Source of the DNA: a virus
Taxonomy: Duplodnaviria; Caudoviricetes
Reading direction: 5' to 3' (one strand)
Virus record (IMG/VR): IMGVR_UViG_3300048849_000150
Span: 1-41,434 of that record
DNA length: 41,434 bases
Position 1 is the first letter of the stretch. Every line of letters begins with the position of its first letter. A program made the translations under genes and the position numbers. Below are positions 1 to 40,354 of this stretch, piece by piece. Under the pieces are notes generated by a model. It did no database searches. It was not told the DNA's origin and worked only from the letters and a program-made list of their open reading frames with translations.

Positions 1-1074
1 TTACCGCTTCTTTTTGGACTGAAAAGCTCGGATCACTTTGGCTTCGGATTCAACGTGGCGCGTGTAGTGTGCGCCCATCCGCTCCGACCTGTCGCCAAGG
101 GCCGCTGCGACGTCGCCAGTATCTGCCCCTTGGCGTCTGAGGTCTGCAGCATAAGTGGTGCGCAAGCCGTGTAGCGTCGTGCCTGACCCGATATGCCCCT
201 CGCGTTCTAGGTCACGAAGATAGTGGCTCACAGCTGTCTGCATCTGCTTTTCATCAATCCAAGGCGTCCCGTCCTGCCGAGTGCAGATCTCCAGAGCAGA
301 GCGGGTGAGGGCGTCAAGGTGCGTCTGCAGCTCGTCGACCACAGGGATCATGGTGTTCTCTTGGTTCTTGCGCGCGACTTTTCGAAAGCATTTCCAACCG
401 TGCTGAGCATGTACGGCATAGTCGTTCCAGCGTAGCTTGACGATGGTCTGTCCGCGATAGCCTGCGTGTCGAGCGATCAGCAGCGGCGTCAACAAGTAGG
501 TCGGGGCATGATCCCGCACGTAGTCCCACTCGTGGGAAAACCACTCTCGATTGGCGTTCGGATCGGCAGCGTGGACCTTGTCCATCCCCAGGGCAGGATT
601 GAACGGCAGCTTTCGCCGCTTCACTGCCTGGCTGAACATGGACGAGAGGGCGGAAACCATCTTGTCCGCGAAGCGCGGCCACTTCTCTTTGGCGCAGCGA
701 TCGCGAATGTCGTAGATGTCAGCAGTGGTTATGTCTTCTATCGGATAGTCGAATTCCGGGCGTAGCCAAAGGAAGGCGCTGGTGTAGTCGGCCTTGGTAG
801 CCGGAGCTAGCTTTTGGTATTTGGGGCAATCGTTTTCGAACCAGTACACGAGGGCGCCCAGAGTGCCTTCAGTGTAAGTCCGCTTCTTCTCCAGAACGGT
901 GCGGCAAGCGTTATAGGCCGCGATGAAATCTGGCATCTTCAGGCGTTTTAGGAGGTCGTCGCGAGACCCATCAAACCCGGCGAGAAGCTTTTCTCCCGTC
1001 GCGCGCACATAGACGTAGTAGCGCCCGCGCGCCTTGACAACGTTAAGGCCTTCCAGCTTCACCTTGACCACCAT
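1..1074 (-). CDS. int: Tyrosine recombinase / phage integrase
   Basis: 357 aa; GYRG box I Arg, HGLR box II, C-terminal AHYTR catalytic Tyr; prophage end position. Confidence 0.95.
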   Translation of the reverse strand: MVVKVKLEGLNVVKARGRYYVYVRATGEKLLAGFDGSRDDLLKRLKMPDFIAAYNACRTVLEKKRTYTEGTLGALVYWFENDCPKYQKLAPATKADYTSAFLWLRPEFDYPIEDITTADIYDIRDRCAKEKWPRFADKMVSALSSMFSQAVKRRKLPFNPALGMDKVHAADPNANREWFSHEWDYVRDHAPTYLLTPLLIARHAGYRGQTIVKLRWNDYAVHAQHGWKCFRKVARKNQENTMIPVVDELQTHLDALTRSALEICTRQDGTPWIDEKQMQTAVSHYLRDLEREGHIGSGTTLHGLRTTYAADLRRQGADTGDVAAALGDRSERMGAHYTRHVESEAKVIRAFQSKKKR

Positions 1075-1309
1075 TCAGCCTGTCCCCAAACCTGCGCTTA
1101 GGGGTATCATCTTGCTTGTTCGGATCGATCTTGACTAGCCACTCGTCTAGACGGGCTCGCAGGTAACGATCGCCGCGCGTAGACTGGGTGTAGCTCATCG
1201 GCTTGACCGGGCAGACTTTCTTGAAGGTCTCGGGGCAGCAGCCGCAATAGGCTGCAGCCGTTTTTAGATCCATCGCTGCAGGCCAGTAAGGAATAATAGG
1301 CGAGGTCAA
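1043..1309 (-). CDS. Putative excisionase / small DNA-binding protein
   Basis: 88 aa, AAMDLKTAAAYCG helix motif and RYLRARLDEWL; directly upstream of and overlapping int. Confidence 0.75.
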   Translation of the reverse strand: MTSPIIPYWPAAMDLKTAAAYCGCCPETFKKVCPVKPMSYTQSTRGDRYLRARLDEWLVKIDPNKQDDTPKRRFGDRLNGGQGEAGRP

Positions 1310-1764
1310 TTTTTGCCCTCCGTACGATGTTCGGGCGCTGGCGCTGTGCTATCATTCGGGGCACCGTGGATGGAGGCGTCGGATGGCAGCTCTACGAAAG
1401 CCCGCTCGTGAACGTGGGGCTCGTGCTCTATGTCGGCAGGACGGCCACCCTGAGGATATTCAGTTTGAGGGAAAGCCGATGTGGATGTCATACCTCCCGC
1501 AGGTTGACGCTGTGCTACAAGCCGCGCTTGCCCCTGATGAGTGGGAGCGGATGCGTCGGGAGGGGTGACCTCATTATCGGCGGGCATTACCGCGCCAGCC
1601 TTGTTCTTCCGGATGGCATTGCGGCTGGTCACCATGGTGTAGCCATCGGAGAACTGGACCAGACACGAGTTCATCGCCTTCGCTCGAATCGGCACCTCGC
1701 ATGGCTGTCCTTTCCGGCCCTGGCGATCCCAGGCATAGATGTAAGGTAGCGGCGCTGTCGTCAT
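1306..1764 (-). CDS. Phage hypothetical protein; plausible N-terminal domain, C-terminal part antisense to a + strand gene
   Basis: ATG 1764 with GGAGGT RBS and ATGA overlap; N-terminus YIYAWDRQGRKGQPCEV...NSCLVQFSDGYTMVTSRNAIRK looks like a phage small protein. Confidence 0.6.
   Translation of the reverse strand: MTTAPLPYIYAWDRQGRKGQPCEVPIRAKAMNSCLVQFSDGYTMVTSRNAIRKNKAGAVMPADNEVTPPDASAPTHQGQARLVAQRQPAGGMTSTSAFPQTEYPQGGRPADIEHEPHVHERAFVELPSDASIHGAPNDSTAPAPEHRTEGKN
1383..1568 (+). CDS. Small hypothetical protein (antisense moron), 61 aa
   Basis: GGAGG RBS at 1372-1376; RERGARALCRQDGHPEDIQFEGKPMWMSYL resembles small rhizobial hypotheticals (recalled, not searched). Confidence 0.65.
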   Translation: MAALRKPARERGARALCRQDGHPEDIQFEGKPMWMSYLPQVDAVLQAALAPDEWERMRREG

Positions 1765-2816
1765 GCCGGCACCTCCGGCAAGTCGTCGTGCTTGAAGACG
1801 TCCAGCAGCCTTGCGGCTGGCGCCCCTGCGCCTGATTGGCAAGAAACGTACCGAGCGGGACAAAAGCTCAGGAAGGCGTATGGTAGGAACATAATTGCCA
1901 AATTTTGGGAGGAATGCCGGTGTCTGACCAATGGACCTATTTTCCTGCTGCCATGACCGCTAACAACTTGCGCAGTCTTCGTGCCGCGTTTCAACGCGCG
2001 TGTGCCATCTCTGGAGCCTCCGATGAAGCAGAGAGGGATCTGCTGGCAAGTGTGATCTTCAGGTACTACCAACGAGGGCTGACGGAGCCTGATCGCCTTG
2101 CAGACTTGGCATGTTTCATTTGTGGCCTTGGAGTGCGGGGCGATGCCATAACCGCAGCGCCCCCGGCCGCCGGGCATGCAGTTCGCGTGGATGCATCTCA
2201 GCCGTTGGCCATTCCGATTGTCTCTCTCCCATCCATGGATAAAGGTCAGCTGTTCCAGGATCATGCCATCGCCTCCCTGGCTGCGGGTAATGGTGGGAAC
2301 TGATGCTTCCCGCTGGGGTTTGGATCGACCATCCCTGATGGCGACAAGCTGAATCGTCTCGGACCACCGGACCAAGACGTTCTGTACGCTTTCGGTCATA
2401 GCAGTACATTTGAAAGCGCTTATGTTAGGGGGGTGACTTGATCTCATACCGGACAGCCCGTTCCCCTGCCTTATAAAGGTGCTGTGGCTCGCTCCTGTTC
2501 TGTTTGACTGCAGATGGAGTGATCGATGCAGCGATACTTTTTTCACCTCAACTTCTTGCGCAACTACATCGAAGATTTGGAGGGCACGGAGCTTCCAGAT
2601 CTTGAAGCTGCCAAGAGCGAAGCGCGCGTCATAACCCGGTATCTTGCCGCTGAATATTTGAAGGGCGGGAAGAAGTTTGAGATGTGGAGTGTTCGCGTCT
2701 CTGATGAGACGAACAAGCTGTTGGCTGAGGTGTTGGTGCAGGAAGCCATCACCGAGGTATTCCCGCCCCAGATATTCAGCTCCTCGGGCCCTGACAGCCA
2801 CATATGAGTTGCTCAT
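1761..2816 (-). CDS. Putative filler ORF, 351 aa, antisense to two + strand genes
   Basis: GAGGAGG RBS and ATGA overlaps at both ends, but no recognisable protein features. Confidence 0.35.
   Translation of the reverse strand: MSNSYVAVRARGAEYLGREYLGDGFLHQHLSQQLVRLIRDANTPHLKLLPALQIFSGKIPGYDARFALGSFKIWKLRALQIFDVVAQEVEVKKVSLHRSLHLQSNRTGASHSTFIRQGNGLSGMRSSHPPNISAFKCTAMTESVQNVLVRWSETIQLVAIRDGRSKPQREASVPTITRSQGGDGMILEQLTFIHGWERDNRNGQRLRCIHANCMPGGRGRCGYGIAPHSKATNETCQVCKAIRLRQPSLVVPEDHTCQQIPLCFIGGSRDGTRALKRGTKTAQVVSGHGSRKIGPLVRHRHSSQNLAIMFLPYAFLSFCPARYVSCQSGAGAPAARLLDVFKHDDLPEVPA
1920..2303 (+). CDS. Hypothetical protein (antisense moron)
   Basis: GGAGGA at 1908-1913, GTG at 1920; helical N-terminus LRAAFQRACA...LASVIFRYYQRG resembling rhizobial small proteins. 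Confidence 0.65.
   Translation: MSDQWTYFPAAMTANNLRSLRAAFQRACAISGASDEAERDLLASVIFRYYQRGLTEPDRLADLACFICGLGVRGDAITAAPPAAGHAVRVDASQPLAIPIVSLPSMDKGQLFQDHAIASLAAGNGGN
2526..2807 (+). CDS. DUF6894-family protein (antisense moron)
   Basis: MQRYFFHL...DLEGTELPDLEAAKSEA...SVRVSDE signature; GGAG RBS. Confidence 0.85.
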   Translation: MQRYFFHLNFLRNYIEDLEGTELPDLEAAKSEARVITRYLAAEYLKGGKKFEMWSVRVSDETNKLLAEVLVQEAITEVFPPQIFSSSGPDSHI

Positions 2817-2905
2817 AGGGCCTCCTCTTTTTTCACGGTGGCAGCACACTTATTCTGTAGACCCTCCTCCCTCGTTTCGGGCGATGGGTTCCTGTCGGTG
2901 GTCAT
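2813..2905 (-). CDS. 30-aa coupling peptide MTTDRNPSPETREEGLQNKCAATVKKEEAL (below the ORF-track cutoff)
   Basis: Translated by hand; ATG overlaps the MTase stop and its stop overlaps the ATG at 2816. Confidence 0.35.
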   Translation of the reverse strand: MTTDRNPSPETREEGLQNKCAATVKKEEAL

Positions 2906-3633
2906 TCGTCACCTCCAAACATGTTTTTCTGATCGTATGCGGGAGCTGTCGGCATAGGCGCTGCAAAGAAGTCGGACTGGGCGTGGGCATTGCGGATGCG
3001 CTGGCAGGCGATCTCGAAGTAAGTCTCATCCCGTTCAATGCCGACGAAGGGCATGCCGGCTTTGACACACGCTACGCCCGTGGTACCGCTGCCCATGAAT
3101 GGGTCCATGATGGAAGATCCGGCAGGAAGGAATGACAGACACCACGACATCAGCGCGACCGGCTTCTGAGTTGGGTGCTGCCGCTCTCCGTCACGCTTAG
3201 ATGCAAGGCCATTGCTGCAGTAGGTGAACTTCTTCACCGAGTTACCATCGAGCGAGGACCAAGCCATTTCGCCGTCAGAATAGGACGGCATGGAGTTCAG
3301 CTTGTCCCAGAATAGCCAGCGGCCAGACGGCGGCAGGTAATCGGCAAAGTAATTGCCGCCCCATATGATGTGTCTGTGGCCGGCACTGAGCAGGAGTGAG
3401 AAAGCCTGCTCGCTGGGGCGGACATCGTCCCAACTGCCGGCATATGTCTTCGGCTTGCGCTTATATCGCCCGGATGCGTCTGTGCCTCCTCCGCCCATTC
3501 CATTGGCTTGGTTGATCCCATAAGGCGGATCGGTGACGATGGCGGTCGCCTTGCCAAGCGACGGCAGAACCTCGAGGCAATCACCAAGATAGAGCGTACA
3601 CTGCTCAATGACCTCTTTGCGGATGAAGGTCAT
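2902..3633 (-). CDS. Orphan DNA methyltransferase, N6A/N4C beta class
   Basis: TDPPY (motif IV) N-terminal, HPTQKP, DPFMGSGTTG (motif I) C-terminal. Confidence 0.92.
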   Translation of the reverse strand: MTFIRKEVIEQCTLYLGDCLEVLPSLGKATAIVTDPPYGINQANGMGGGGTDASGRYKRKPKTYAGSWDDVRPSEQAFSLLLSAGHRHIIWGGNYFADYLPPSGRWLFWDKLNSMPSYSDGEMAWSSLDGNSVKKFTYCSNGLASKRDGERQHPTQKPVALMSWCLSFLPAGSSIMDPFMGSGTTGVACVKAGMPFVGIERDETYFEIACQRIRNAHAQSDFFAAPMPTAPAYDQKNMFGGDE

Positions 3634-3857
3634 TCGGGGTCACCCATCTTTTGATCTTGGGGCGGCGCTGTCGAGCTGATCCCAGCTAAGACGCCGGCAA
3701 TAATAGTTGCCGGGGAGAAGTCACGGCGGTTCCACTTGATGGGATCGACGGCGAGATCGCCGATCCCGCATCCCTTTCCGTTGATGTGGACTGCACCATA
3801 GCCTCGGTCTTCCATAGGATCGGCGCAGAATGGGCAAGGCAAAAGCTTATCGGTCAT
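3630..3857 (-). CDS. Lar-like restriction alleviation / zinc-ribbon protein
   Basis: LLPCPFC N-terminus and KWNRR motif. Confidence 0.6.
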   Translation of the reverse strand: MTDKLLPCPFCADPMEDRGYGAVHINGKGCGIGDLAVDPIKWNRRDFSPATIIAGVLAGISSTAPPQDQKMGDPE

Positions 3858-4252
3858 GACTGAGCGCCTCCAATGGTGATGATGCGATCAGGGTGAACCA
3901 CCTCTGCCAGCTCGGACAGCGCGTCGATGCGCTCATGCTCCGCGATGTTCATGACAGGGACGGCGATCTCCGCGCCGTAGCGCCCTGTCCAGGTGGCAAG
4001 CCAGTCTCGCCAGTTGTCGCCATTGACCTGGTCGGCCTCATCAATGGCGGCTTGCATGTCGGGATAGAGAGAGAGCATGACCGGAACGGCTTCGCGGCTG
4101 ATGCGCGGGATCTGGTGCGTGTAGACGCTCTCGCCCGTCATCCAATTCAGCACCTCGTAGACGCAGCCAATGCCACCTTGGGAGACGAGGATGCCGGTGA
4201 CAGTGGACATGACCGCATCGACAGGGAAGAGTTTCGTTCTGCGATCAGCCAT
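3854..4252 (-). CDS. Phage hypothetical protein
   Basis: ATG 4252, overlapping neighbours; high GC3; motif VYEVLNWMTGESVYTHQIPR. Confidence 0.75.
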   Translation of the reverse strand: MADRRTKLFPVDAVMSTVTGILVSQGGIGCVYEVLNWMTGESVYTHQIPRISREAVPVMLSLYPDMQAAIDEADQVNGDNWRDWLATWTGRYGAEIAVPVMNIAEHERIDALSELAEVVHPDRIITIGGAQS

Positions 4253-5606
4253 TGTCCCGACCCTCCGCTGCGAGGGCATCGAAAACAGCCTGCAGGCCGG
4301 CTTTTGTGGCGATCAGGCCGATGTTTTCCTGAGGGATGCCGCTTTCATCATCGAGCCAGCGATCGAAAACATCTCGGAAGGCTGCCTTGTACGTGGTCGC
4401 CAGTTCGTCGGTGACCTGCACATTCGGATCGGGGGCTGTGGCTGTTAACGCTAGCTCCAGTCTTGGCTCGACAGCTATGCCGATGCCTGTATGGCTTCCG
4501 AGTGTAGGAGAGCCATCATGATTGCACGGATCGTCACCATACTTCGTCCCATATGCGTTGCTGCGACCGTCGCCCTCGCCGTCATATTGATCCTGTGCTT
4601 CTGGGACTGGCAGGTTGTGACCTGGGAAACCTTCTGGAAGTTGTTCTTCTCTTACATCGTGCTCATGAGCGCTTACACGTTGATCTATTTCATCGACGAT
4701 CCTAGGCGCATCACAGGGGGATAGTGTCGCTGGCGGGACCTGAGCAGCGACGACACCCGGCAGATTCATCTTTGGAGATGGGTTCTGCTCCTGTTCGCGC
4801 TCGGTTCTGCCTACGGGAGTACAATCTAAAACAGCTATGCCTGCTTGTTCTGCGACCACATGTGTCTCGGGTGCTGGGGTAGACAGGCCGGCCATCAGCG
4901 CTGCGCGCGCTTGGTCCAGCGCCTGGGCGTGAGCCTCATAGGGTTTTGGAAATTTGTGCGGCTGTGCGGCTGCTGCTTCTAGGTCTTCCCACGTTGTCTC
5001 AGCTTCTTCATGGGACTGCCACGTCTGCCATATTGCCCGGGCAGCACGACGAACCGCTTCATGAGTCAATCTCAGTGTCTCGGGTTCTGGGGTGGCTGCA
5101 TAAAGTGACGTGATGGCTTCAATGGCCTTTCCGTGAGCTTCCTGCAGATCACCAGAGCCTGCCACGATCATCTCGCTGAGCGCAGAAGTTGTCGCATAGA
5201 CGGCAGCGTCGAGCGCTTGTCGCCATCCTCGCGCGTGGCCGTCATGCGTTGCCTGGATCTGGGATGATGCGCAGCCCGGTACCAGTTGGGCAGAAACGTT
5301 TTGCCGAGGCCACTCAAACTTCCCAGCACTATGGAAGTAGGTATCGATCTTTCCATTCGGCAGCTCGTCGCCCGTTTCGAGATCGACGACGGGGGCACCT
5401 TCCAGGCACGCGGCGTGGCAGGTGCCAAGCTCGATGTCGGATGCGCAGGCGTCATTCGGCTGGAACGCGACCTGGCAGATCGGGCAGAGATCCTGCTCGT
5501 CATCCGCGGCCGATGCATCAACGCCCATGCCAGATCCTTGGCCGCTCTCGTCTGTAATTGTTGCGAAGCTTTCATGCACGCCAGGTGTCGGCTGTCTCTC
5601 GCTCAT
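4245..5606 (-). CDS. Mosaic phage hypothetical protein with Cys-rich N-terminal domain; reads through an antisense gene
   Basis: ATG 5606 overlaps upstream stop; CPIC...CASDIELGTCHAAC motif. Confidence 0.6.
   Translation of the reverse strand: MSERQPTPGVHESFATITDESGQGSGMGVDASAADDEQDLCPICQVAFQPNDACASDIELGTCHAACLEGAPVVDLETGDELPNGKIDTYFHSAGKFEWPRQNVSAQLVPGCASSQIQATHDGHARGWRQALDAAVYATTSALSEMIVAGSGDLQEAHGKAIEAITSLYAATPEPETLRLTHEAVRRAARAIWQTWQSHEEAETTWEDLEAAAAQPHKFPKPYEAHAQALDQARAALMAGLSTPAPETHVVAEQAGIAVLDCTPVGRTEREQEQNPSPKMNLPGVVAAQVPPATLSPCDAPRIVDEIDQRVSAHEHDVREEQLPEGFPGHNLPVPEAQDQYDGEGDGRSNAYGTKYGDDPCNHDGSPTLGSHTGIGIAVEPRLELALTATAPDPNVQVTDELATTYKAAFRDVFDRWLDDESGIPQENIGLIATKAGLQAVFDALAAEGRDNG
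4518..4724 (+). CDS. Small two-TM membrane protein (antisense moron; possible superinfection exclusion)
   Basis: AGGAG RBS, ATG 4518; two hydrophobic stretches; function is inference. Confidence 0.7.
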   Translation: MIARIVTILRPICVAATVALAVILILCFWDWQVVTWETFWKLFFSYIVLMSAYTLIYFIDDPRRITGG

Positions 5607-6118
5607 CGCGCGTCCTTCCACTGTTCAAAGCGGGCAAGCAGCGCCTTAAAGCGCCTTGCTGCTGCAGGGTGTGTGTTCAACTCAGTCCGAGACTCAATCT
5701 CCAGGACTTTGCGGAGGCTTGTGACGAACCTCTCGCGATCGGTCGTGGGGGCACCATGCTTCTCCGACAGAAATTTCTTGAAGCTCGGGTCATCGCAAAG
5801 AGTAGCGCATGCCTTCGAGAGGTCCGGCCGCGGCTCCTCCATCTCCTGCTTCAGTGCCCGGACCTCATTGAAGGCGCGCTTGAGCAGCACCAGTAGCGCG
5901 CGCATCAGAAGCGGCGCCTTGATCATCAGCATGCGGTCGTCATAGGGGCAGTCTGGCAAGATGTGCGCGATTGGCATGATCTCGCCCGTCATGTTGTCCT
6001 TGATGCAAATCTCAGCCCGCTTTTCGTCGACGTCATAGGATTCTGCCCATTCCTCGCTTGCGAGGCTGGCAAAGTGCTTTGCGTCAGGCAGAAGCGTGCG
6101 GGCGAGATCGAGGTTCAC
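5603..6118 (-). CDS. Phage hypothetical protein
   Basis: 171 aa; C-terminal LCDDPSFKKFL...LEIESRTELN motif; GTGA/ATGA coupling. Confidence 0.8.
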   Translation of the reverse strand: MNLDLARTLLPDAKHFASLASEEWAESYDVDEKRAEICIKDNMTGEIMPIAHILPDCPYDDRMLMIKAPLLMRALLVLLKRAFNEVRALKQEMEEPRPDLSKACATLCDDPSFKKFLSEKHGAPTTDRERFVTSLRKVLEIESRTELNTHPAAARRFKALLARFEQWKDAR

Positions 6119-6414
6119 TGCCGGCTATCTCGCAACTGGCGTAGACTGTTGAGTAGGTTCCGCAGCGGGCGGGTTTCCTCGGGGCAGCCGCACATGGTCA
6201 AGGTGTGAAAAAGCGCCTCTTCGAGTGCGTCCGCAGCAGCCCTGAACGATGCCTCATTCACTTCGCCTGTTGTCGAAAGCATGCCGAGGTTATGGCAGGC
6301 GGTCTGTATGCTGATGGCGATTGCCTGCAGCTCGGCATGGAACCGCTGCACCTGCTGTCCGCCGGCTGAGGGCGTCGGCTTGGCGCCGGGAAACGGAACG
6401 ATCACGGCGCTCAT
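6115..6414 (-). CDS. Phage hypothetical protein
   Basis: MSAVIVPFP start with ATGA overlap and GGAGG RBS. Confidence 0.7.
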   Translation of the reverse strand: MSAVIVPFPGAKPTPSAGGQQVQRFHAELQAIAISIQTACHNLGMLSTTGEVNEASFRAAADALEEALFHTLTMCGCPEETRPLRNLLNSLRQLRDSRQ

Positions 6415-6893
6415 ACCAGCGCCTCCGCCGCATAAGAGGCCTCGATGTCGAGGACGCGCTGTCCCGCCAAGGCGACAGCTGCTCCGAGGCACAAAAGCGC
6501 AAAGCTAGTGGCGAGAACGAGCAGAAGCCACGACGGCTTCCACTCGGCGCTCGCCTTCGCTGACCCGGTGATGACCGGTATTGCGTAAGGACGAGAGGTG
6601 TGATCGTCCTGGTGATCAGTGGCAACACCGTGGTGATCCGTTTGGACACCTAGATCATCGATGATGTAGGGCAGCGCCTGGTCTCGGTTGGCCTTGACGA
6701 AGGCGATGCGCCGCCGGAGCAATTCTGCGTCGATCAGCTCACGCGCCTGGTCGTACTGGGCAACGCTGTCACCCCAGCGCGCGGCTGTGGCGATCTCGTC
6801 GTGACACTTGCGGTATTCCCGATGAAGCTGCTGATCCGTCATGGACGCAAACCGCACGCAGGGCTCTATGGGGAGAAAATTGACGGCTGACAT
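6411..6893 (-). CDS. Phage hypothetical protein with C-terminal TM helix
   Basis: GGAGG RBS before ATG 6893; hydrophobic WLLLVLATSFALLCLGAAVALA. Confidence 0.7.
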   Translation of the reverse strand: MSAVNFLPIEPCVRFASMTDQQLHREYRKCHDEIATAARWGDSVAQYDQARELIDAELLRRRIAFVKANRDQALPYIIDDLGVQTDHHGVATDHQDDHTSRPYAIPVITGSAKASAEWKPSWLLLVLATSFALLCLGAAVALAGQRVLDIEASYAAEALV

Positions 6894-6904
6894 GGATTGA
6901 CCTC

Positions 6905-6968
6905 CGATCCGTTTCGGATGTCGCCACGGGGCTACCCTTGCGGGCGTGGCGATCACCGAAGCGGATCG
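6905..6968 (-). ncRNA. Long intergenic stem-loop in the leftward operon
   Basis: CGATCCGTTTCGG/CCGAAGCGGATCG outer stem, TCGCCACG/CGTGGCGA inner stem, CCC-GCAA-GGG tetraloop on the - strand. Confidence 0.6.
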
Positions 6969-6970
6969 CC

Positions 6971-7207
6971 TCAGGCAGCGCGCTGAGCCGGCACTGAGAA
7001 TCGCCGCTGGTAGGTGCTGCGTTCCACGGCATAGGCGCGGGCATCATCGACGACAGCTTCCAGCTGGCTCTGCGTGATCCCGAGACTGTTCTTCAGGTCG
7101 CTGGCCGTGCAGCCTTCGCCCAGGCGGCGCATGGCTTCGCCAACGCAGGCAATCTGCTCCTGGCGGTTACGGCAAAGGGGGTAGGCATTGTGGTTTTCGA
7201 AGCGCAT
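6971..7207 (-). CDS. First gene of the leftward operon; small HTH-like protein
   Basis: ATG 7207 after GGAGA; CTASDLKNSLGITQSQL is HTH-like. Confidence 0.75.
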   Translation of the reverse strand: MRFENHNAYPLCRNRQEQIACVGEAMRRLGEGCTASDLKNSLGITQSQLEAVVDDARAYAVERSTYQRRFSVPAQRAA

Positions 7208-7250
7208 GTTGTTCTCCATCAAAGGTCCGACGAGTTCGGATGGAGATAAC

Positions 7251-7299
7251 GTGCATCACATTCACACGGTCGTCAAGGCAAAAGTGAATGCCATGAACG
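7251..7299 (-). promoter_or_regulatory. Leftward early promoter/operator (PL/OL)
   Basis: TTGACG -35 at 7276-7271; CATTCAC elements; 7281-7299 reverse complement matches 8135-8153 at 18/19. Confidence 0.75.
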
Positions 7300-7456
7300 A
7301 GGCTCCTGCAGCTCCGCTACTGTTGCGCCGGAACTATAAAAGCTTCTGCTAGGATCCGCTTTGGGAAGGGAGAGAATTTTAGCGAACGCGAATCAACGAG
7401 TTGAGCAGGCGAGGAGGCAATTGACCGCTTGAGGCCTTGAACTGTTGGTCGCTTTT

Positions 7457-7471
7457 GTTCACTATAGGTTC
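7457..7471 (+). promoter_or_regulatory. Alphaproteobacterial LexA (SOS) box
   Basis: GTTC-ACTATAG-GTTC, exact GTTC-N7-GTTC; overlaps the -10 position 17 bp after TTGAAC (7437-7442). Confidence 0.8.
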
Positions 7472-7502
7472 TTGTTCCAGTACCCTCGCAGATGAGACCG
7501 TC

Positions 7503-7730
7503 GTGGCGATCAGTCATCAAATCAGGCAAAAGTACAAGACTCGAAACGACGAAATCGTTGCGGGCCTATTCGAGTCTGCAGGTGCGATACCGCCGGCTCC
7601 ACCAGAAATCGTCATCAAGCGGAAGGCCGCGGAGATATCAACGCTTATGGCGTTGATACACGGCGGCGACTGGCGGGTTGAGATTGACCATCACTCGGGC
7701 TTTGTACTGATTGCTCCTCGGGTGCCGTAG
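7503..7730 (+). CDS. SOS-regulated small protein, candidate antirepressor
   Basis: 75 aa from GTG 7503, downstream of the LexA box, convergent and overlapping the repressor 3' end; start codon uncertain. Confidence 0.65.
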   Translation: MAISHQIRQKYKTRNDEIVAGLFESAGAIPPAPPEIVIKRKAAEISTLMALIHGGDWRVEIDHHSGFVLIAPRVP

Positions 7731-8067
7731 CCGGCACGAAGGTCTTGATGATGGCCGTAGCGCGTTCAAGCTGGCTGCGATCAACGCCAAACGCCAGCAG
7801 AGAGCTTCTAAGGGCGGCCTCTGGAGAAAGTTGCTCCGTGGCTGCATAAGGCATCAACAGATCAGAAGGTTTGCACTTCAGTACTGCTGCGATGGCTTCG
7901 AGCGTCCGCTGCGTGTAGGGGGAATCTGAAGTTTCAATCTTCGACAGGGTGCTGCGAGACATGCTGATCCTTTCAGCAAGCGCCTCTTGGGTAAGGCCGC
8001 GACTGTCGCGCCACTCGGCGATATAGGTACGGCCCAGCTTGGCCAGTTCTTTCTTCACGGGTGCCAT
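7645..8067 (-). CDS. CI-like XRE-family HTH repressor without an S24 peptidase domain
   Basis: IAEWRDSRGLTQEALAERISMSRSTLSKIET HTH; only 140 aa; divergent from cro. Confidence 0.9.
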   Translation of the reverse strand: MAPVKKELAKLGRTYIAEWRDSRGLTQEALAERISMSRSTLSKIETSDSPYTQRTLEAIAAVLKCKPSDLLMPYAATEQLSPEAALRSSLLAFGVDRSQLERATAIIKTFVPATAPEEQSVQSPSDGQSQPASRRRVSTP

Positions 8068-8100
8068 CTTCAGATTATCTCACGGCCCTTGAAAGGGCTC

Positions 8101-8153
8101 CATGCATTCACATTCACATTGTGCTTGACATTCACGTTCATGACATTCACTTT
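8101..8153 (+). promoter_or_regulatory. Rightward early promoter/operator (PR/OR) with CATTCAC direct repeats
   Basis: CATTCAC at 8105, 8111, 8129, 8144 plus CGTTCAT at 8135; perfect TTGACA at 8125-8130. Confidence 0.8.
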
Positions 8154-8161
8154 CCGTGCCT

Positions 8162-8359
8162 ATGAGCGCACTGAATGACTACATGGATGCGGGACGAATC
8201 TCGGATGCACTTCTGGCCGAAAAGGTTCGGTGCGACCGTTCGATGATCGCAAAGGTACGCGCCGGGAAAGCGACACCGTCGCTGAGGCTCGCGGTGGCTA
8301 TCAGCCGTGAGACTGGCGTACCGGTGGAGAGCCTCCTTCCATGTGAGGCTGCCGAATGA
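8162..8359 (+). CDS. Cro-like HTH protein
   Basis: 65 aa HTH (DALLAEKVRCDRSMIAKVRAGKATPSL), divergent from the repressor. Confidence 0.85.
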   Translation: MSALNDYMDAGRISDALLAEKVRCDRSMIAKVRAGKATPSLRLAVAISRETGVPVESLLPCEAAE

Positions 8360-8457
8360 TGCGCCTCTCAAACTCGTTCCCTTCTGGCGGCGGTCACTCC
8401 TCCCGCTTGTCCGCCAGGATCCGCGCGCTGCTCCTCCTCCCGTTGCGTGCGGCAACT

Positions 8458-8504
8458 CGGCCGGGGCAGAACCTATCTGGCGGACCGCCCCGGCCGTTTC
8501 CTTT
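8458..8504 (+). terminator. Intrinsic terminator (tR1-like) after cro
   Basis: CGGCCGGGGC/GCCCCGGCCG 10-bp stem followed by TTTCCTTT. Confidence 0.65.
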
Positions 8505-8627
8505 GTCTGTTCTGCGAGCATGTGGACCTCCATGAGTTGATGGCCCGACCGTAGCGGGCGACCTCGCCAGCTTCACGGAATCCTTGTCCATCCTGATTTT
8601 CCTTGACCTCATTTAGGGGCTGTTTTC

Positions 8628-9077
8628 GTGCGCGTTATTTCTGACCACTATGCATCCGCCATCAAGGCAGCGACGGCTGCAGCCTATGAAGCCATGGGCG
8701 GCGTTTCCCGCGCGGCTGAAGCGCTTGGCGTCGGCTCCTCCACCCTCACCAAGTATGCTTCCACCGGTGAAGAGTGGGGTCAGAACTTCATCCGATTTGA
8801 CCTGGCGGCGGAGCTGGACCGGCGCACGGGCCATCCGTTCATGCTTTCCGCGCTTCAGCAGATCGTTTCAGAAGAGCAGACGACCAGCTTCGGCGCCGTC
8901 ACGGCGGCTGCCATTCTGCGGTTGGACGGCGTGCTCGACGACGTGGTGCGCACCGTCGCGCTGGCGATCGAAGACAACCACATCGATGCGTCCGAGAAGC
9001 AGGCCATCCGCCACCGGATCGTGGCGGCCAAACAGTACCTGGCGCGCCTCGACGCCATGATGGTGGGAGGCTGCTGA
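8628..9077 (+). CDS. Phage regulatory protein, CII family
   Basis: IKAATAAAYEAMGGVSRAAEALGVGSSTLTKYA HTH; position after cro. Confidence 0.8.
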   Translation: MRVISDHYASAIKAATAAAYEAMGGVSRAAEALGVGSSTLTKYASTGEEWGQNFIRFDLAAELDRRTGHPFMLSALQQIVSEEQTTSFGAVTAAAILRLDGVLDDVVRTVALAIEDNHIDASEKQAIRHRIVAAKQYLARLDAMMVGGC

Positions 9078-10058: not shown

Positions 10059-10448
10059 GTGAGCGGATTTGATCCCATGGCCGTAGGCGGCAAGATGGCA
10101 GCCGCAGGCGACGACACCCTTGTCACGATCACGGGTAGCGGCGTGACCGCCGAAACCACCCTTGGCGCGATGAAGGCGGCCAGTGCGGCTCACTCCGGCA
10201 ACATTGCCGCCGACCAGTTGCGCTCCTTCATCGAGCGCGTCGAGCGTCTGGAAGAGGAAAAGGCGACGATCGCCGACGACATCAAAGACGTCTACGGCGA
10301 AGCGAAATCGGTTGGCTACGACCCGAAGGTGATGCGCGCCCTGATCCGTATCCGAAAGAAGGACATCAGCGAGCACAACGCCTTTCAGGACGTGCTCGAC
10401 ACATACCTTGCGGCCCTCGGCATGATCGAAGGATTTGCCGATGAGTGA
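10059..10448 (+). CDS. GapR-like (DUF2312/UPF0335) DNA-binding protein
   Basis: [51 protein letters not shown] signature; start approximate. Confidence 0.92.
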
Positions 10449-12696
10449 CCAAGGGTGGAAGTCGGAATTCGAGATGAAGACAGGGCGGCATGATCTGCCT
10501 GTCGCCGTGCGCCTGGACCAGATCGACGTCGGCTTTCGTCTTCGTGAGTTGGACCTGGACAAGGTTGCGGCGCTGAAATCCTCGATCGAGCAGATTGGGC
10601 TGCGGACGCCCATTTCTGCGACCGGCCCCGCGGACAAGTCATTCGACGACCCCGACTTCCGAGTGCGGCTGACGGCGGGTGCCCACCGCCTGGAGGCTAT
10701 TCGGCAGCTTGGGCGCGAGCATATCGCCGTCATCGTCAATGACGAGGATGACCTCGATTCCGAGCTTTGGGAAATCGACGAGAACCTGATCCGCGCAGAG
10801 CTGAAGCCTGCCGACAAGGCGCTTTTCACCTTCCGGCGTAAAGAAATCTACCTGATGCGCCATCCGGAAACGGATCATGGTGGAGACAGAGCAAGTCGCC
10901 AAGTTGGCGACTTGAAGCAAGGGGATTCGAAGCGTTTCACGGTCGCCACTGCCCAGGCGACAGGGCAGTCGGAGCGTGCCGTCCAGCGCGATGCCGAGCG
11001 GGGTGAGAAGATCTCCGAGAAGGCGCTGCGCATGCTCCGCGGCACCCGCCATGACAAGGGCACCATCCTTGACAAGCTCAAGGGTCTGCGGACCGAAGAG
11101 CAGGAGGTGTATGTCAACGCCCTCTTTGACGCCGACAAGGTTGTGGGGTCGGAATACAAGGTAATCCGCTCCGATAAGATGGCAACCAAACGGGCTATCC
11201 GGACCGGCATGATCAACGCGATCGCGGCGCATGGGAAGCTGGTCGCCGGTGAGATGCCGCGGGCTGCTTTCCCCGTGGGATATGCAGACCCGCCATGGGA
11301 GCAGGAGGCCTGGAGCAACGAGACAGGGCAGGACAAGGGTCTGATGTACCCGCCCATGCCGCTCGACGAGATCAAGGCGTTGTGCGCCGGCGACAGAAGC
11401 CCCTTTACCCCTGATTCGATTCTGTACCTTTGGGTGCCAAGCAACCGCATGGATGATGGCATCGCCGTTCTCAGGGCTTGGGGCTTCGAGTTCGTCAGCG
11501 TCATCACCTGGGACAAGGAAGACATCGGCATGGGCCGATGGGTTCGGGACCAGACCGAGCACCTGTTGATCGGCAAACGCGGCGACTTTCCTGGCCTTCT
11601 GGAAGGAAGCCAGCCGCGCAGCCTGTATCGAGAGAAAAAGACGACCCACAGTCGCAAGCCGGTGTGGTTCGCAGAGATGATCGACCGGCTTTATCCGGAC
11701 ATGCGCAAGATCGAACTTTTCCAGCGGCGCGCTAGCCTGAGCGAGGGCGATATCCGTCTGAACGGGTCTTGGGAGTTCTGGGGGTTCGAAGCGGGAACTG
11801 CTTCTGAAGCCCTACCGACGGGTGGCGACCCTGTCGATGGTGAGGGGCCGCCCGACCAGGGTCTGCACGACACCAATGAGCAGGCTGAGCCCAATAAGCC
11901 GAAGGCCAAGAAGTCACAGAAGGCCGTGAAGCCAAGCGCCTACGAATTGGAAAAACAGGCGAGCGCTGCCCGGAAAGACGCCTATCGGGCTTCAATTACC
12001 GTCACGCCGGAAGAAGGCTTGGATACCCTCGTCTTGGTTGCCCAAGGCAAAGTGCAAGCCTACGACGCAGCCGCTCGATTGGGCGATTTTGCCGGGATGC
12101 GCCTGGCTTACGATCACCTCGATGCGATCTGCGAGCACATCTTTGGACTCGAGGCCGGCTTCGATTGGAGCAGGGGAGGTGGACCACCCAAAGGTTCCGG
12201 TCGGTTCTCTTGCCTATACGACGCAAGCAAGTGGCTGGCGGGAGTGACGGCAGCAGCGGATGGGGCCGTTCCTCTTCTCGGACAGGCGGGTCGCTTTTTG
12301 ATCGAGGTCGAAGGTTGCCGGATAGACTTGCACTGCGGCGGGCTCTTCGGTCTCGGGTTTGGCGCGCATGTCGTCGACCTCGACAGGCCTTTCATCTCGG
12401 AGACGGGGTACCGGTCGCTGGGCATCCGGCTGTTCGGAGATGAGCAAGCGGTGACCGAAGCCGCAGGTTCGGACATGAAGACATTCATGGAGCGAGCTTG
12501 CCTGGAGGAACTGACTGAAGGCGGACGAAAGAAGCTCAAGCTTCACAATCCGCCCTTTGGTCTGTCCTCAGGACCGAAGCAGCCGAGATCAGACGAGTCG
12601 ATCCGCAATGGGCGGGGTGGCGACCGGGCGTATCAGCCCGGAGGATACCTGCATGCTTTGATCACCACCGCGGTCGAGCGGGAGGTGGCGGCATGA
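10441..12696 (+). CDS. ParB-N domain + MT-A70 adenine methyltransferase + KlcB-like C-terminal domain fusion
   Basis: [20 protein letters not shown] (ParB); ADPPW, LYLWVP, HSRKP, IELF (MT-A70); [14 protein letters not shown]...[15 protein letters not shown] (KlcB-like, recalled from memory). Confidence 0.85.
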
Positions 12697-13227: not shown

Positions 13228-14475
13228 ATGGACGGACCGCGTCTCTCCATCATCCCCGCCTGGGTCATTCAAGACCCTCGTCTGAAGGGCAACAAGGATT
13301 TGGCCGTGCTGTGCATGCTCGGTCAGAACGCGAACACGCGTCACGGCTGGTGTCGGCGCAGCCAGGTCAAGCTCGCCGACGCGCTGAACTGCTCGCGCTC
13401 AACGGTGCAAGCCTCCATCAATAGGCTCGTCGAGGTGGGCGCAGTCGAACGCCGCGCCGTCGAGAGTGTCAGCGGGCGTGACAGCGCCCATTGGTACCGT
13501 GTGATCTACGATTCAAAGGTTCAAAGCTCTGCGCTGGCTGCATGGGATGCGGCCGATGAAGAGGAATTTGGTCCTATGGACGCTGCTGAAAACGGCGATA
13601 CCCCTGCCGTTATACCGGCACCCCCTGCCTACCCAGAGCAGGCACCCCCTGCCGGTCTAGGATCGGCACCTATTAACGCCTCTACCTTAACGCCTCCTGT
13701 TAAACGAGAAGAGAGAGAGAGCGCGAGCGTTGACGATGAAGGGGAAGAAAATCCCAAGGCGGTGGAGCGACGGTTCCGCAAGTGGTGGTCGACGTGGCCG
13801 AGCTATACCGTGGACAATGAGCAGGCAACAAGGCGCGCCTGGCAGGATCTGACGGAAGAACAACGCAGGACTTGCGAAGAACGGACGCCAGACTACCTGG
13901 CAGCAGCTAAGGCGAGCGGGCGCAAGTTCGTAAAGGCTTCTGCCACCTACCTGTCAGAGCGGGCGTGGGAGCGGCTGAACGACAAGCCGGCTGCGACCTC
14001 GGCGGGACCGGCAACGTTCAACGCCTACTCTCGTCCCTGGAGCGCCCTGAGGCTTGCAGAGCTTTCCAAGCACCCTCTGCCTCTCACGCTTGACCGCTAC
14101 GAAGAGCTGGTGATCGCGAAAAGCCCTGAGAAGGAGGCGATGATCTGGCGCGACAAACGCATGCAGAAAGGCTGGCCGGAAGCGATCAGGCTGCACGAAG
14201 CGGCGGTCAACCGAAAGCCAGTGGCAGTGCCGTCGAATATCGTCGCCATCTCCCAGTGCTTTGACAAGGTCGAGGTGGGCAGCACGATCTGGGAGGCATG
14301 GAAGCAGCTGCATCATGAGCGTGGCTGGCCATGGATACCGGAGCCGAAAGGGCTGGCCTTCGTGCAGTTCCCGGCTTTGCGGGAAGGGATCGAGGATCCT
14401 GACGAGGCGGTGGCGCAGGCACTGAGGCAATTCCAGAGACATCTGATCGAGAGGCGGGACGATGATGCAGCATAA
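13228..14475 (+). CDS. Replication initiator (N-terminal winged HTH, lambda O-like layout)
   Basis: RSQVKLADALNCSRSTVQASINRL HTH; internal iterons; FRKWWSTWP...ATYLSERAW C-terminal motif. Confidence 0.8.
   Translation: MDGPRLSIIPAWVIQDPRLKGNKDLAVLCMLGQNANTRHGWCRRSQVKLADALNCSRSTVQASINRLVEVGAVERRAVESVSGRDSAHWYRVIYDSKVQSSALAAWDAADEEEFGPMDAAENGDTPAVIPAPPAYPEQAPPAGLGSAPINASTLTPPVKREERESASVDDEGEENPKAVERRFRKWWSTWPSYTVDNEQATRRAWQDLTEEQRRTCEERTPDYLAAAKASGRKFVKASATYLSERAWERLNDKPAATSAGPATFNAYSRPWSALRLAELSKHPLPLTLDRYEELVIAKSPEKEAMIWRDKRMQKGWPEAIRLHEAAVNRKPVAVPSNIVAISQCFDKVEVGSTIWEAWKQLHHERGWPWIPEPKGLAFVQFPALREGIEDPDEAVAQALRQFQRHLIERRDDDAA
13600..13696 (+). repeat. Putative replication origin iterons
   Basis: GGCACCCCCTGCC at 13617 and 13641 (24-bp period), partial copies at 13600 and 13665, then TTAACGCCTC twice (13673, 13687). 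Confidence 0.75.
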
Positions 14476-15106
14476 CAAGATGACCGGAACGCCGATCGCA
14501 ACTCCGGTACGGGAAAGATTTGAAGACCGCATGCGCCGAATCGCAGCGAAGAACCTGAAGGAAGCGACTATGAGCGTGATCGAGAATCACCCGCACCTGG
14601 CCCGTTGGTACTGCTTACAGGTCGAGCCGCGTCATGAGCTCTCTGTGGAAAACATATTGAAGGAGGCTGGTGTCGAAGTCTTCCTGGCGCGGCAAAAGGT
14701 GATGATCGTTCGCCGTGGGCAGAAGCTTGAACAGGAGATCTCGATGTTTCCTGGCTACCTCATGGTTCGGTGCGTGCCATCTGATCGGGCATTCGAGGGC
14801 CTCAGACGGCAAAAGTTCGTAGTCCGCATCATGGGTGGCGTAACAGGGGTACCGCTTCCTATTCGTGACGAAGTAATCAATCTCTTCAAGAAGATAGCAA
14901 ATGAGAATGTTCCGTTCATTGCTACGGATAAAAGCTTTATCGAAGGCGATCGAGCCGAGATCAAAGACAGCGCGTTCGCTGGCTTCACCTGCCTGATCCT
15001 CCAAGTCAAATGGTGCAAGCAGGCCAAGGCAAGAGTCGCGATCAACGTGGACGGACAGGTTTTCGAAATTGAAAGCATGCCACTTGCGTTCCTGAAGAAG
15101 CTGTGA
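14462..15106 (+). CDS. NusG-family transcription antiterminator (putative late-gene regulator)
   Basis: WYCLQVEPRHE, MFPGYLMV (NGN domain); FIEGDRAEIKDSAFAGF (KOW); occupies the lambda Q position. Confidence 0.88.
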   Translation: MMQHNKMTGTPIATPVRERFEDRMRRIAAKNLKEATMSVIENHPHLARWYCLQVEPRHELSVENILKEAGVEVFLARQKVMIVRRGQKLEQEISMFPGYLMVRCVPSDRAFEGLRRQKFVVRIMGGVTGVPLPIRDEVINLFKKIANENVPFIATDKSFIEGDRAEIKDSAFAGFTCLILQVKWCKQAKARVAINVDGQVFEIESMPLAFLKKL

Positions 15107-34059: not shown

Positions 34060-34952
34060 GCCGCCCCAAGAGAAACTTTAGACTAGACCGATCTGTGGAT
34101 TGGAAACCGGTAGAACTCGAAGCGACCCTTGGTAGCCTCGATCTTAGGCCGGGCCGTCAGGTCGTATACCGGATCTCCCACAAAGGCTTCCAGATCCCCG
34201 TCTTCGCTTTTTTACGCCCGGAGACAGGGAAGCTTTTAGCTTTCGGACAAGAGTCTTTAGTGCGGTCAAACACTGTCCTCCCTCTTTTTTACAGGTGGTC
34301 TTGGCACGCAAGGCTGTCTGATACGTCGCTGATAGTATTTAATGATCCCACGCTGACCCTTCACCCCCACTTGGGATGCTGCTGGTCCCAAGGCACGAAG
34401 GATCAGTTCGCGCTGGAAGCTATGCGAGATGTTCTCGTAGCTTTCTGTGATCGACTTGGCATCCCTCCACAGGACGCGCTTCTCTTTGGCGCGTCTGCAG
34501 GAGGATTCTGGGCAATGATGACTGGTGCTGAGGTGGGCAGCCGAGCTGTGGTGGTGGACAGCCCGCAAACTGATCTGTTTCGATATCACGACACCGGGCC
34601 CAGGGATGCGATGCTACGGGCCTGCTACCCGGAGATGGAGGCGGCGGACATCCAGTTGATTTACCCGGACCGCCTGAGGGTGATCGATCGCATAAAACTG
34701 CTTGGGAAGGCGGCACAGAAGATAGTCTTCGTTGAGAATAAGCAGGATGTGAAACACGTGCGAACGCAATGGAACGACTTCTTCTCCGAGCTGGATCAAT
34801 TGCCGTACGAGTGTAGACCTGAGATCTTCCATATTAGGTATGACCGCATCGGTGATCGCGGGCAAACGCATACGACTATGGAGACGGACGCGACAGTCCA
34901 GCTTCTGGCGAAAGTTCTCGCCGGCCGTGATCTAGAGCTTCAACCAGCGTAA
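34056..34952 (+). CDS. Alpha/beta hydrolase-fold protein (putative esterase)
   Basis: FGASAGGF nucleophile elbow, later Asp (QD) and His (THT); ATGA overlap with the tailspike stop. Confidence 0.75.
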   Translation: MSRPKRNFRLDRSVDWKPVELEATLGSLDLRPGRQVVYRISHKGFQIPVFAFLRPETGKLLAFGQESLVRSNTVLPLFYRWSWHARLSDTSLIVFNDPTLTLHPHLGCCWSQGTKDQFALEAMRDVLVAFCDRLGIPPQDALLFGASAGGFWAMMTGAEVGSRAVVVDSPQTDLFRYHDTGPRDAMLRACYPEMEAADIQLIYPDRLRVIDRIKLLGKAAQKIVFVENKQDVKHVRTQWNDFFSELDQLPYECRPEIFHIRYDRIGDRGQTHTTMETDATVQLLAKVLAGRDLELQPA

Positions 34953-35655
34953 GCATTTCCTGACGCCCGCGCTTTCTGAAGGCGAACACACTGTGACCAG
35001 TCAGCTTTGTCAGGCTGCTGGCTGGCACTGAGGCATCCCTAAGATCGTCCTCATCAAGGACGTCTTCTAGGTCTAGCCGGCCGAAGCCAACGAAATGACG
35101 AGTTACCCGATCATCAAAATCCAGTGAGCCGAACACGCGGCAGTGGTCGTGCTGAGTGAATTCTTTGGCTCTAATCGAAAGCGGCAGATCGGGGTCCATG
35201 TCCTCACGATACCACTTGCTGTCAATTGGCACCTGGAAGATGTGCAGCCCGCCCGGCTTCAGCATCTTGTTGGATTCTCGGATGATCCTGTCCAATGGTG
35301 CTCGTACGTGCTCAAGAACATGGGAATGGATAATGGCGCCGAACTTGTCGTAGTGCTCCGCCAATGACAGAGCGCTCAGATCCAGCTTCATGACCGGGAC
35401 GGGAGGGTGCTGATAGACCTCAGGCATGATGTCAGCGGGTGCATACCGATCCCCTACCAGATCATAGACGAGCCTCGTGATTGCTTCCTCGGGCGCCAGA
35501 TGCAGAACCGGGCCATTGATCGCAGGAAGAAGCTTTTTGAGCACCAGCGCCATCAGCCGGCCACGCTCCTTGGCGCCGCACCCTGCGCAGCGAGCGAGCT
35601 TCCGTCCGCGATATTCGGTAAACGTCTGGCTTTGGCAGATAGGGCAAGCGGGCAT
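34876..35655 (-). CDS. Class I SAM-dependent methyltransferase with N-terminal Zn ribbon (glycan-associated type)
   Basis: CPIC...CAGC, VLHLAPE, HSHVLEHV, MLKPGG, QHDHCRVFG; GGAG RBS. Confidence 0.85.
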   Translation of the reverse strand: MPACPICQSQTFTEYRGRKLARCAGCGAKERGRLMALVLKKLLPAINGPVLHLAPEEAITRLVYDLVGDRYAPADIMPEVYQHPPVPVMKLDLSALSLAEHYDKFGAIIHSHVLEHVRAPLDRIIRESNKMLKPGGLHIFQVPIDSKWYREDMDPDLPLSIRAKEFTQHDHCRVFGSLDFDDRVTRHFVGFGRLDLEDVLDEDDLRDASVPASSLTKLTGHSVFAFRKRGRQEMLTLVEALDHGRRELSPEAGLSRPSP

Positions 35656-39810: not shown

Positions 39811-40354
39811 GTCTACCGGCCGAGGGACAGCTGCTGAACATGCAGTTCTAGTTGAGGCCCGCTAGCTGCAGTACGTCTGCAGAGAGACTTGCTCCTGCCA
39901 AAGCGACAACAGTAGTCACGATGGCTACAAAAATGACGTCAGTGAGATGCAAATTCCGTTTCATAGCTCTCCGATAGTGCTCCGAGGTTATAGCTGCGTT
40001 GAGTTTTCGCGGCCTCATAACGCGATCTGGCAGAGAAGGCCAGATGCTGCTTTCCCTTTCGACCTAGTAGATATGATGGGTGAGCTCCGGGAGTACCAAA
40101 GCCAGACCGATTGCGTACCGTTTGGCTGATCAGTACGAGAACAGACGATGATCATCTGCCGCGGCTAGGTGCGGACAAGGTAGGTTTCGCAGCGCCACCG
40201 CCGTTCGGGACGGGGGCTTCAATAACCAAAGCTAGTACCCGCTCCTCGAGTTGACTGCCGCTCGTCAAAAATAAGTGGGGTTTTGGAGCGGCAGCCCGCA
40301 TCGATTTTCCGACACTGATGGATAATGTTGCCGATTCGCAAGAGGAGGAAGCAG

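Follow-up and report, generated by a model that had tools for sequence, protein, structure and literature searches.

The leftward early operon of IMGVR_UViG_3300048849_000150, a temperate phage record of 41 kb, keeps its own strand open to ribosomes across four genes that lie backward within it. The window referred to below is the whole of this stretch as analysed, 41,434 nucleotides (nt). From sequence comparisons with related early operons, it is very probable that selection maintains an open, coupled frame on the operon strand, that is, continuity of ribosomes along it. We lean slightly towards the view that this continuity would act through the avoidance of Rho polarity on the distal genes. 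In these phages a tight chain of stop/start overlaps leading to the integrase gene is the norm; the unusual part is that the chain stays open across backward cargo.

Twelve minus-strand open reading frames (ORFs), running from 6893 to 1, all translate without an internal stop. They are given here in the order of their coordinates, so that the last gene of the chain comes first; SD denotes a Shine–Dalgarno sequence and aa amino acids.

1-1074, minus strand: int, tyrosine integrase, last in the chain (Pfam PF00589, PHROG 1)
1043-1309, minus strand: predicted excisionase/AlpA-like small protein (xis), with a TTG start, TTGA coupling and a 32-nt overlap with int; its position and conservation beside int are seen in relatives
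1306-1764, minus strand: bridge 1, a real head of ~55 aa with an antisense-derived extension over the 1383 gene
1761-2816, minus strand: bridge 2, a pure filler of 351 codons over two cargo genes and spacers, with a GAGGAGG SD and ATGA at both ends
2813-2905, minus strand: link ORF of 30 codons, ATGA at both ends, a singleton cluster
2902-3633, minus strand: N6/N4 DNA methyltransferase (PF01555, PHROG 67)
3630-3857, minus strand: 75-aa chain ORF with a CPFC motif, without a family match
3854-4252, minus strand: DUF7736 protein (PF24875)
4245-5606, minus strand: bridge 3, a 453-aa mosaic in which a CPxC domain is combined with in-frame linker repeats and, at ~4424-4880, an antisense-derived module
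5603-6118, minus strand: conserved phage protein with a GTG start (PHROG 10379)
6115-6414, minus strand: 99-aa chain ORF
6411-6893, minus strand: first ORF of the chain, with a GGAGG SD

Nine of the junctions have an offset of -4, one of -8 (4245-4252) and one of -32 (predicted xis over int). Two of the -4 junctions are not ATGA, being GTGA at 6115-6118 and TTGA at 1306-1309, and a clear SD is lacking at the starts 6118 and 3633; that of int is weak. The predicted xis has no family match, and its name rests on position and a motif resembling a helix-turn-helix (HTH). The chain begins at 6893, where a 77-nt gap with a hairpin separates it from 6971-7207, the first gene of the operon. Relatives' loci, which carry L-numbers below (L004, L041 and so on), were gathered with int, NinB-like, CPxC and second int queries and, with duplicates removed, 81 operon regions were retained. 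Among 37 anchored regions, 26 have no gap above 40 nt on the operon strand and none (0/37) is so on the opposite strand; such chain-walking counts are floors, as the greedy walk misses junctions that lack an SD, including one in the window. The chain of phi2LM21 contains 12 consecutive overlaps.

Four plus-strand ORFs lie within the chain, each open and each with an SD-like run upstream.

1383-1568, plus strand: cargo A, 61 aa, not in codon register with its bridge; its 21 homologues are 67-86% identical
1920-2303, plus strand: cargo B, GTG start; the L041 homologue is 62% identical, conservation covers the first ~80 aa and divergence is concentrated at third positions
2526-2807, plus strand: cargo C, a DUF6894 protein (Pfam PF21834, E value 5.7e-16)
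4518-4724, plus strand: cargo D, a hydrophobic protein of 68 aa; 15 matches, mostly of 67-76 aa and 30-58% identity, 13 of which cover most of the query

An earlier note on this DNA, made from the sequence alone, had described the unbroken overlaps from 6893 to int, the GAGGAGG site and ATGA junctions of 1761-2816, and four plus-strand genes with ribosome-binding sites of their own across each of which the minus-strand frame stays open. All of this is borne out, and each of the four genes belongs to a real family. Three of them (cargo A being the exception) are in codon register with their bridges. A family-level search with the cargo B alignment gave only 6 weak matches in 400 genomes. The window DUF6894 protein, used as a query, found no relative in viral contigs or annotated phages, and a metagenome scan matched 6 short contigs, one of which was examined. 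A homologue of cargo A stands in another context at 5995-6177 of L180, with no long opposite-strand frame above it.

Evidence for selection comes from related operons carrying other cargo. A fixed rule, which demands a codon-likelihood score above 4 and the presence of an SD, was applied to 79 of the 81 regions, this window and L081 being left out, and returned 24 antisense candidates. One open operon-strand frame spans 22 of these, and 20 are coupled at both ends; for control genes under the same rule the counts are 76/180 and 3/180 (Fisher p of 2e-6 for spanning and 7e-21 for coupling). The cargo is diverse, comprising DUF6894 proteins, a response-regulator receiver, an SMR-family transporter and small unknowns, and no convincing cargo gene without a bridge was found in the anchored set. 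A comparison that the earlier note had proposed, of related prophages keeping the open frame and its junctions around different morons, came out in its favour.

A single family seen in both settings makes the same point. The DUF6894 copies in other early operons all lie (4/4) in open frames of 373-471 codons, and none of their 60 Leu/Ser codons is TTA, CTA or TCA. Among 46 genome copies taken regardless of context, 20 are spanned, in frames of up to 317 codons; coupling at both ends occurs in none, and those three codons take up 48 of 497 Leu/Ser positions. Two copies cut by locus ends were omitted from both sets, and L056, L083 and L140, being the same contig as L041, were dropped. The coupling rule of the survey accepts more offsets than the one used here, although it was the same for test and control; by this narrower rule, just 2 of the 4 bridges over DUF6894 genes in other prophages show coupling at both ends.

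Since TTA, CTA and TCA are the only codons that yield a stop in an in-register antisense frame, such frames frequently stay open in GC-rich genes. Chance openness was gauged by simulations in which the cargo proteins were kept and the spacers shuffled. Bridge 2 gives a p of 0.0005-0.004 and the bridge over 4518-4724 one of ~0.03. For islands of several genes p is at most 0.01: this holds for the window, for L041 (<=0.006), for L084 and L093 (<=0.01) and for L115 (<=0.0005), where one frame passes over three genes, each in a different register; the value for L084 is too small, as its third gene was treated as non-coding.

In their pattern of change, the fillers do not resemble proteins. In all eight homologous pairs (8/8) conservation is lower in the filler frame than in that of the cargo; most changes hit third positions of cargo codons, where filler codons have their first, and a 54-codon spacer shows no third-position excess. 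Single-base differences in bridge 2 across four other metagenomes comprise 24 non-synonymous, 11 synonymous and 0 stop-creating changes (35 scored of the 40 listed, out of 81, with 3 outside the filler and 2 in a shifted part), close to the neutral shares of 0.69, 0.28 and 0.03. Purifying selection on both proteins, as would mark an antisense overlapping gene, is not seen. This agrees with the expectation in the earlier note of open frames without protein conservation.

The makeup of the bridges indicates how such frames may arise. The window holds one pure filler, 1761-2816, for which a homologue search found none of similar length, and two host genes extended through cargo; 1306-1764 and 4245-5606 are, by their sequence, not pure filler because they have real sense-coded heads. 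Bridge 1 has 120 homologues, most of which cover only about one third of the query. One protein of 77 aa (P0143) is near-identical to 1306-1764 and has the same head without the cargo-derived part, joined to a tail that is also found on the L041 and L084 fillers; judged from the alignment, it is the empty allele of bridge 1 and shows module exchange in frame. In bridge 3, the CPxC domain occurs in relatives ahead of other modules. Those behind it in L066 and L068 may be HD-hydrolase-like and NADAR-like. Its antisense-derived module, of 457 nt, is 99% identical in L041, where it lies with a second antisense ORF within one open frame. Direct repeats in 4245-5606 (4862-4880/5075-5093 and 4471-4481/4831-4841), spaced by multiples of three, likely mark module boundaries; the empty allele and the linker repeats in and around the 4518 module thus both point to exchange in frame. 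A phage moron is an extra gene between otherwise contiguous phage sequences, with a promoter and a terminator of its own. The insertion itself is visible here, since in P0143 the 1306-1764 head runs straight into a tail, and some CPxC host ORFs lack the insert.

A natural variant inside bridge 2 suggests that the chain can also survive a frameshift. Run X2 lacks 1 nt at 2315, and run X3, from a second study, has a replacement that leaves the same phase; of this replacement the phase is visible and the interior is not. The shifted frame meets the following feature.

2261-2276, minus strand: latent GGAGG-N7-ATGA junction inside bridge 2, its ATG in the filler frame and its TGA in the shifted frame

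That frame has its first stop at 2263-2261; this stop overlaps the ATG at 2264, which lies seven bases downstream of GGAGG in the frame that continues to 1761. One weak match aside, this is the only SD-plus-ATGA signature in 1-7000 beyond the chain junctions. The deletion ends the upstream filler on the ATGA at 2264, so the chain survives in the variant. On this arrangement, an extra base likely fused what had been two coupled fillers, and the chain is kept in either state. The empty allele of a host ORF and the one-base variant landing on a hidden GGAGG-ATGA junction are the new elements here.

Controls come from the rest of the window, whose other landmarks are as follows.

7645-8359: cI/cro-like pair
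14462-15106, plus strand: NusG-family gene, after which the head, tail and lysis genes lie

In the late region none of the five main antisense genes is spanned, in keeping with the earlier remark that morons there show no such clean chain; one small uncertain ORF nested in one of the five is spanned. A plus-strand gene between cI and the operon is likewise not spanned. In two N-encoding phages, lambda sieB and HK620 hkaP have 4-15 stops in every frame and are unbridged, with gaps of up to 679 and 822 nt. A 91-codon ORF of L181 (3886-4161, minus strand), right behind a cro-like gene, has an SD, overlaps both neighbours and spans the antisense ORF 3922-4155 (plus strand). From its position, this bridge probably lies in a rightward early operon, and the layout would then not be limited to the leftward one.

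The cargo bears signs of its own regulation. An EcfG-like motif (GGAAC/GAAAC-spacer-GTT) occurs in 10 of 36 cargo upstream regions, against a background of 0.014 per 150 nt, and resembles RpoE2-responsive promoters tabulated in the accessible part of PMC6180224. None of the four window cargo genes has it at short range, although one motif stands 230 nt ahead of the window DUF6894 gene, and it also precedes 23 of the 46 control DUF6894 genes. In view of these promoter motifs, much of the cargo is probably drawn from the host general stress regulon, genes of which these prophages would collect. EcfG/RpoE2-like motifs were noted at L004 (~8790-8815), L007, L142, L005, L041, L084, L093, L122, L060 and, in the window, 2296-2320, where the variable base 2315 falls in the spacer. 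A sigma-70 promoter scan at the window cargo gave no match, and terminator-like sites in 1-8700 number only two, neither directly behind a cargo gene. Beneath a bridge in L093, the antisense cargo (10539-10871, minus strand) is an SMR-family small multidrug transporter (PF00893).

It is tempting to propose that cargo is brought in by module exchange at gene ends or short shared linkers, and that inserts would persist only if one frame stays open or splits into two coupled frames. On induction the fillers would be translated; ribosomes would thereby remain on the transcript as it is made and leave Rho no naked stretch ahead of the predicted xis and int. The loss avoided would be Rho-dependent polarity on these distal genes. 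In the lysogen, promoters of its own would likely drive the cargo. Rhizobia have an active Rho. As far as the accessible parts of these sources go, ribosomes mask Rho utilization (rut) sites and uncoupling leads to polarity (PMC12360218), and translation of P4 eta prevents termination (PMC10111431). The earlier note had held that continuous ribosome coverage is selected for this end: the comparisons back selection for an open coupled frame without protein conservation, and the Rho step is one that we infer.

Two other mechanisms would produce much the same sequence. Each downstream gene might need a ribosome terminating on its start codon, independently of Rho, and such a re-initiation relay would account for exact 4-nt overlaps at 9 of the 11 junctions, a 30-codon link ORF filling even a short gap, the TTG start of the predicted xis, the weak SD of int and a 2315 variant that lands exactly on ATGA. 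On the other hand, 15 of 21 genes downstream of bridges have an SD of their own, so re-initiation alone seems dispensable and cover, more than re-initiation, would be what is kept; moreover, a relay could be served by a short ORF placed directly ahead of the next gene, without 350-450 open codons. We therefore regard the relay as unlikely. Ribosome cover could instead protect the early mRNA against RNase E, or keep it from pairing with cargo mRNA and being cut by RNase III. The EcfG-like motifs ahead of cargo make the presence of complementary RNA likely, and ribosome shielding is a model raised for narnavirus reverse ORFs in the accessible text of PMC8316113. However, the chain is equally tight in operons without antisense cargo, including that of phi2LM21, and protection of this kind appears improbable.

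The remaining explanations deny either the selection or the lack of a product. GC-rich codon usage may leave in-register antisense frames open while module swapping at gene ends supplies the junctions, and three of the four window cases are indeed in register, 42% of control genes are spanned, and heads and tails derive from host genes. This neutral by-product would have to account for multi-gene islands with spacers and mixed registers (p <=0.01), for coupling at both ends in 20/24 against 3/180, and for an anchored set without a convincing unbridged cargo gene; on the present comparisons we hold it to be largely disfavoured and give it little chance. Fillers with an SD, of up to 450 codons and in some cases with real heads or tails, might also be functional overlapping proteins. 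Their low conservation relative to cargo (8/8 pairs), the lack of a homologue of similar length for 1761-2816, the spacer without a third-position excess, the near-neutral natural changes and a length that a frameshift can split all argue otherwise, and we consider functional fillers the most improbable account.

Selection for ribosome continuity, and the part of Rho in it, must also be set against a number of observations that weaken one or the other. Four of the 24 candidates (L019, L030, L121 and L141) look like false gene calls, two of them spanned and two not; the remaining 20 are all spanned. The candidates collapse to ~13 islands in 13 loci, some with shared ancestry. A single gene is spanned by chance about four times in ten, which makes a short bridge weak evidence: chance suffices for the one over 1383-1568 (p ~0.5), and L004 has a p of 0.24-0.32. 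An objection foreseen in the earlier note, that the frames may be no longer than codon usage predicts, fails for 1761-2816 and holds for the 1383-1568 bridge. The absence of stop-creating changes among the 35 scored is not significant, as ~1 is expected, and the X2 deletion variant is a single contig of depth 5.8 that ends at 2378, short of the filler start. At the right end of phi2LM21, 4 of 10 antisense genes are spanned, about the background rate and not zero outside early operons. The contrast with lambda and HK620 is one with two phages of unmatched base composition. The operon strand over cargo is only slightly C- and pyrimidine-rich and only slightly more rut-like, with a C/G ratio of 1.08 vs 1.01. 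Rho, the re-initiation relay and mRNA stability or protection fit the same sequence evidence.

A further difficulty is that antitermination might already be supplied by a cis hairpin or a NusG paralogue. The earlier note had recognised no N-like antiterminator, and no N homologue is recognised here either; the premise that none acts is not secure, given two elements at the 5′ end of the operon and the NusG-family gene.

6905-6968, minus strand: hairpin in the 77-nt gap (z -2.46), a possible regulatory element; it begins at the first leftward gene's stop codon
6971-7207, minus strand: first gene of the leftward operon, 78 aa, predicted helical and HTH-like, not coupled to the chain, with a weak match to phi2LM21 p14

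The hairpin could serve in attenuation, as a site for RNase III or as an antiterminator in cis. Similar sequence with a hairpin occurs at the same place in phi2LM21 (the hairpin is recorded for L190 as well, at 5370-5448, minus strand), and a scan with the hairpin motif gave only 2 matches, unrelated and due to chance. The 6971-7207 protein sits where N does in lambda and belongs to an unnamed Atlas cluster of 50 members; its model, with a predicted local distance difference test (pLDDT) of 69, gave no family and no significant fold match. The NusG/UpxY-like gene 14462-15106 is at the place of lambda Q, is also present in phi2LM21, and scores below the cut-offs for UpxY, LoaP, NusG and RfaH.

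The window integrase is 74-76% identical to integrases of Rhizobium and other Rhizobiales genomes, from which a rhizobial host is inferred. A NinB-like protein query at genus level gave distant matches in 8 of 173 genomes. The window also carries three methyltransferase-type genes (an MT-A70 fusion at 10441-12696, the N6/N4 enzyme at 2902-3633 and an antisense Methyltransf_23 gene with a zinc ribbon at 34876-35655) and a GapR-like DNA-binding gene (10059-10448). An Rfam scan of the window gave three sub-threshold matches, none within 1-7000; among them, 8341-8502 (plus strand), between cro and a cII-like gene, matches the ar14 and CcsR1 small RNAs. At the right end, a low-GC stretch holds a 369-aa ORF (40325-41434, plus strand) without a match in Pfam, PHROG or NCBIfam, the three collections searched.

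Parallels exist in several systems, the sources of which are cited for their accessible parts. One is eta/kil of satellite phage P4, reportedly described by Forti et al. in 1999. There, eta is coupled to an upstream gene, and translating it averts termination and lets transcription proceed into the genes downstream (PMC10111431). The window fillers are likewise coupled to an upstream ORF, in sequence layout, by an SD and ATGA overlaps; however, eta is the gene of a Bro-network protein over an RNA-controlled switch, whereas here unconserved antisense read-throughs recur across inserts. The reverse ORF of ambigrammatic narnaviruses is stop-free, without protein homology and mostly codon-aligned, and translation itself may be its function (PMC6884476, PMC8316113). 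Three of the four window genes align codon for codon with their reverse ORFs; 1383-1568 and some L084 and L115 genes do not. In narnaviruses, which are eukaryotic RNA viruses, there is one genome-long overlap, whereas the present frames are local, of 150-450 codons in a 41-kb prophage of double-stranded DNA, are coupled at both ends, cross spacers and are sometimes out of register.

Phage operons with nested antisense genes are also known. In the noncontiguous operons tha-1/ith-1 of S. aureus phages, an antisense gene with its own promoter is nested, with mutually exclusive expression (PMC11087260). The window likewise nests antisense genes among same-strand operon genes, but the subject there is transcriptional interference, and the parts of that paper available describe no bridging operon-strand ORF. 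Lambda sieB and HK620 hkaP are antisense accessory genes inside a leftward early (PL) operon as well; those operons, however, are N-antiterminated and unbridged, with long untranslated gaps. In the early region of the temperate Pseudomonas phage Fc02, olg1, olg2 and gene 10 are antisense overlapping ORFs (PMC9936078), but the products of both strands show exclusion activity, and ribosome continuity is not proposed in the portion of the paper at hand. A review of antisense proteins (10.1101/2020.02.20.958058) mentions neither Rho nor stop codons in its main text, as far as that was accessible. In the literature searched, whose coverage excludes many subscription journals and supplements, no description of bridging ORFs in DNA phages was found. 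By its sequence, we regard the layout as a real feature, akin to translation-dependent antitermination and to ambigrammatic coding, with a mechanism that is proposed.

Tentatively, one may go further and suppose that ribosome escort has taken the place of N-type early antitermination in a large group of temperate phages, that their early operon must stay translatable throughout, which forces every backward cargo gene to be ambigrammatic, and that hundreds of meaningless codons, translated on induction, form a standing pool for new genes. If selection for ribosome continuity is indeed at work, it would be a design rule of phage genomes, under which reading frames are kept for the act of translation and not for the product. 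It would explain how long early operons are expressed in temperate phages without a recognisable N, which accessory genes such phages can carry and how, and why gene callers mis-annotate these regions. It would also allow the influence of transcription-translation coupling on genomes outside E. coli to be tested with one codon, would supply de novo ORFs, and would give those who insert cargo into temperate phages a rule to work by.

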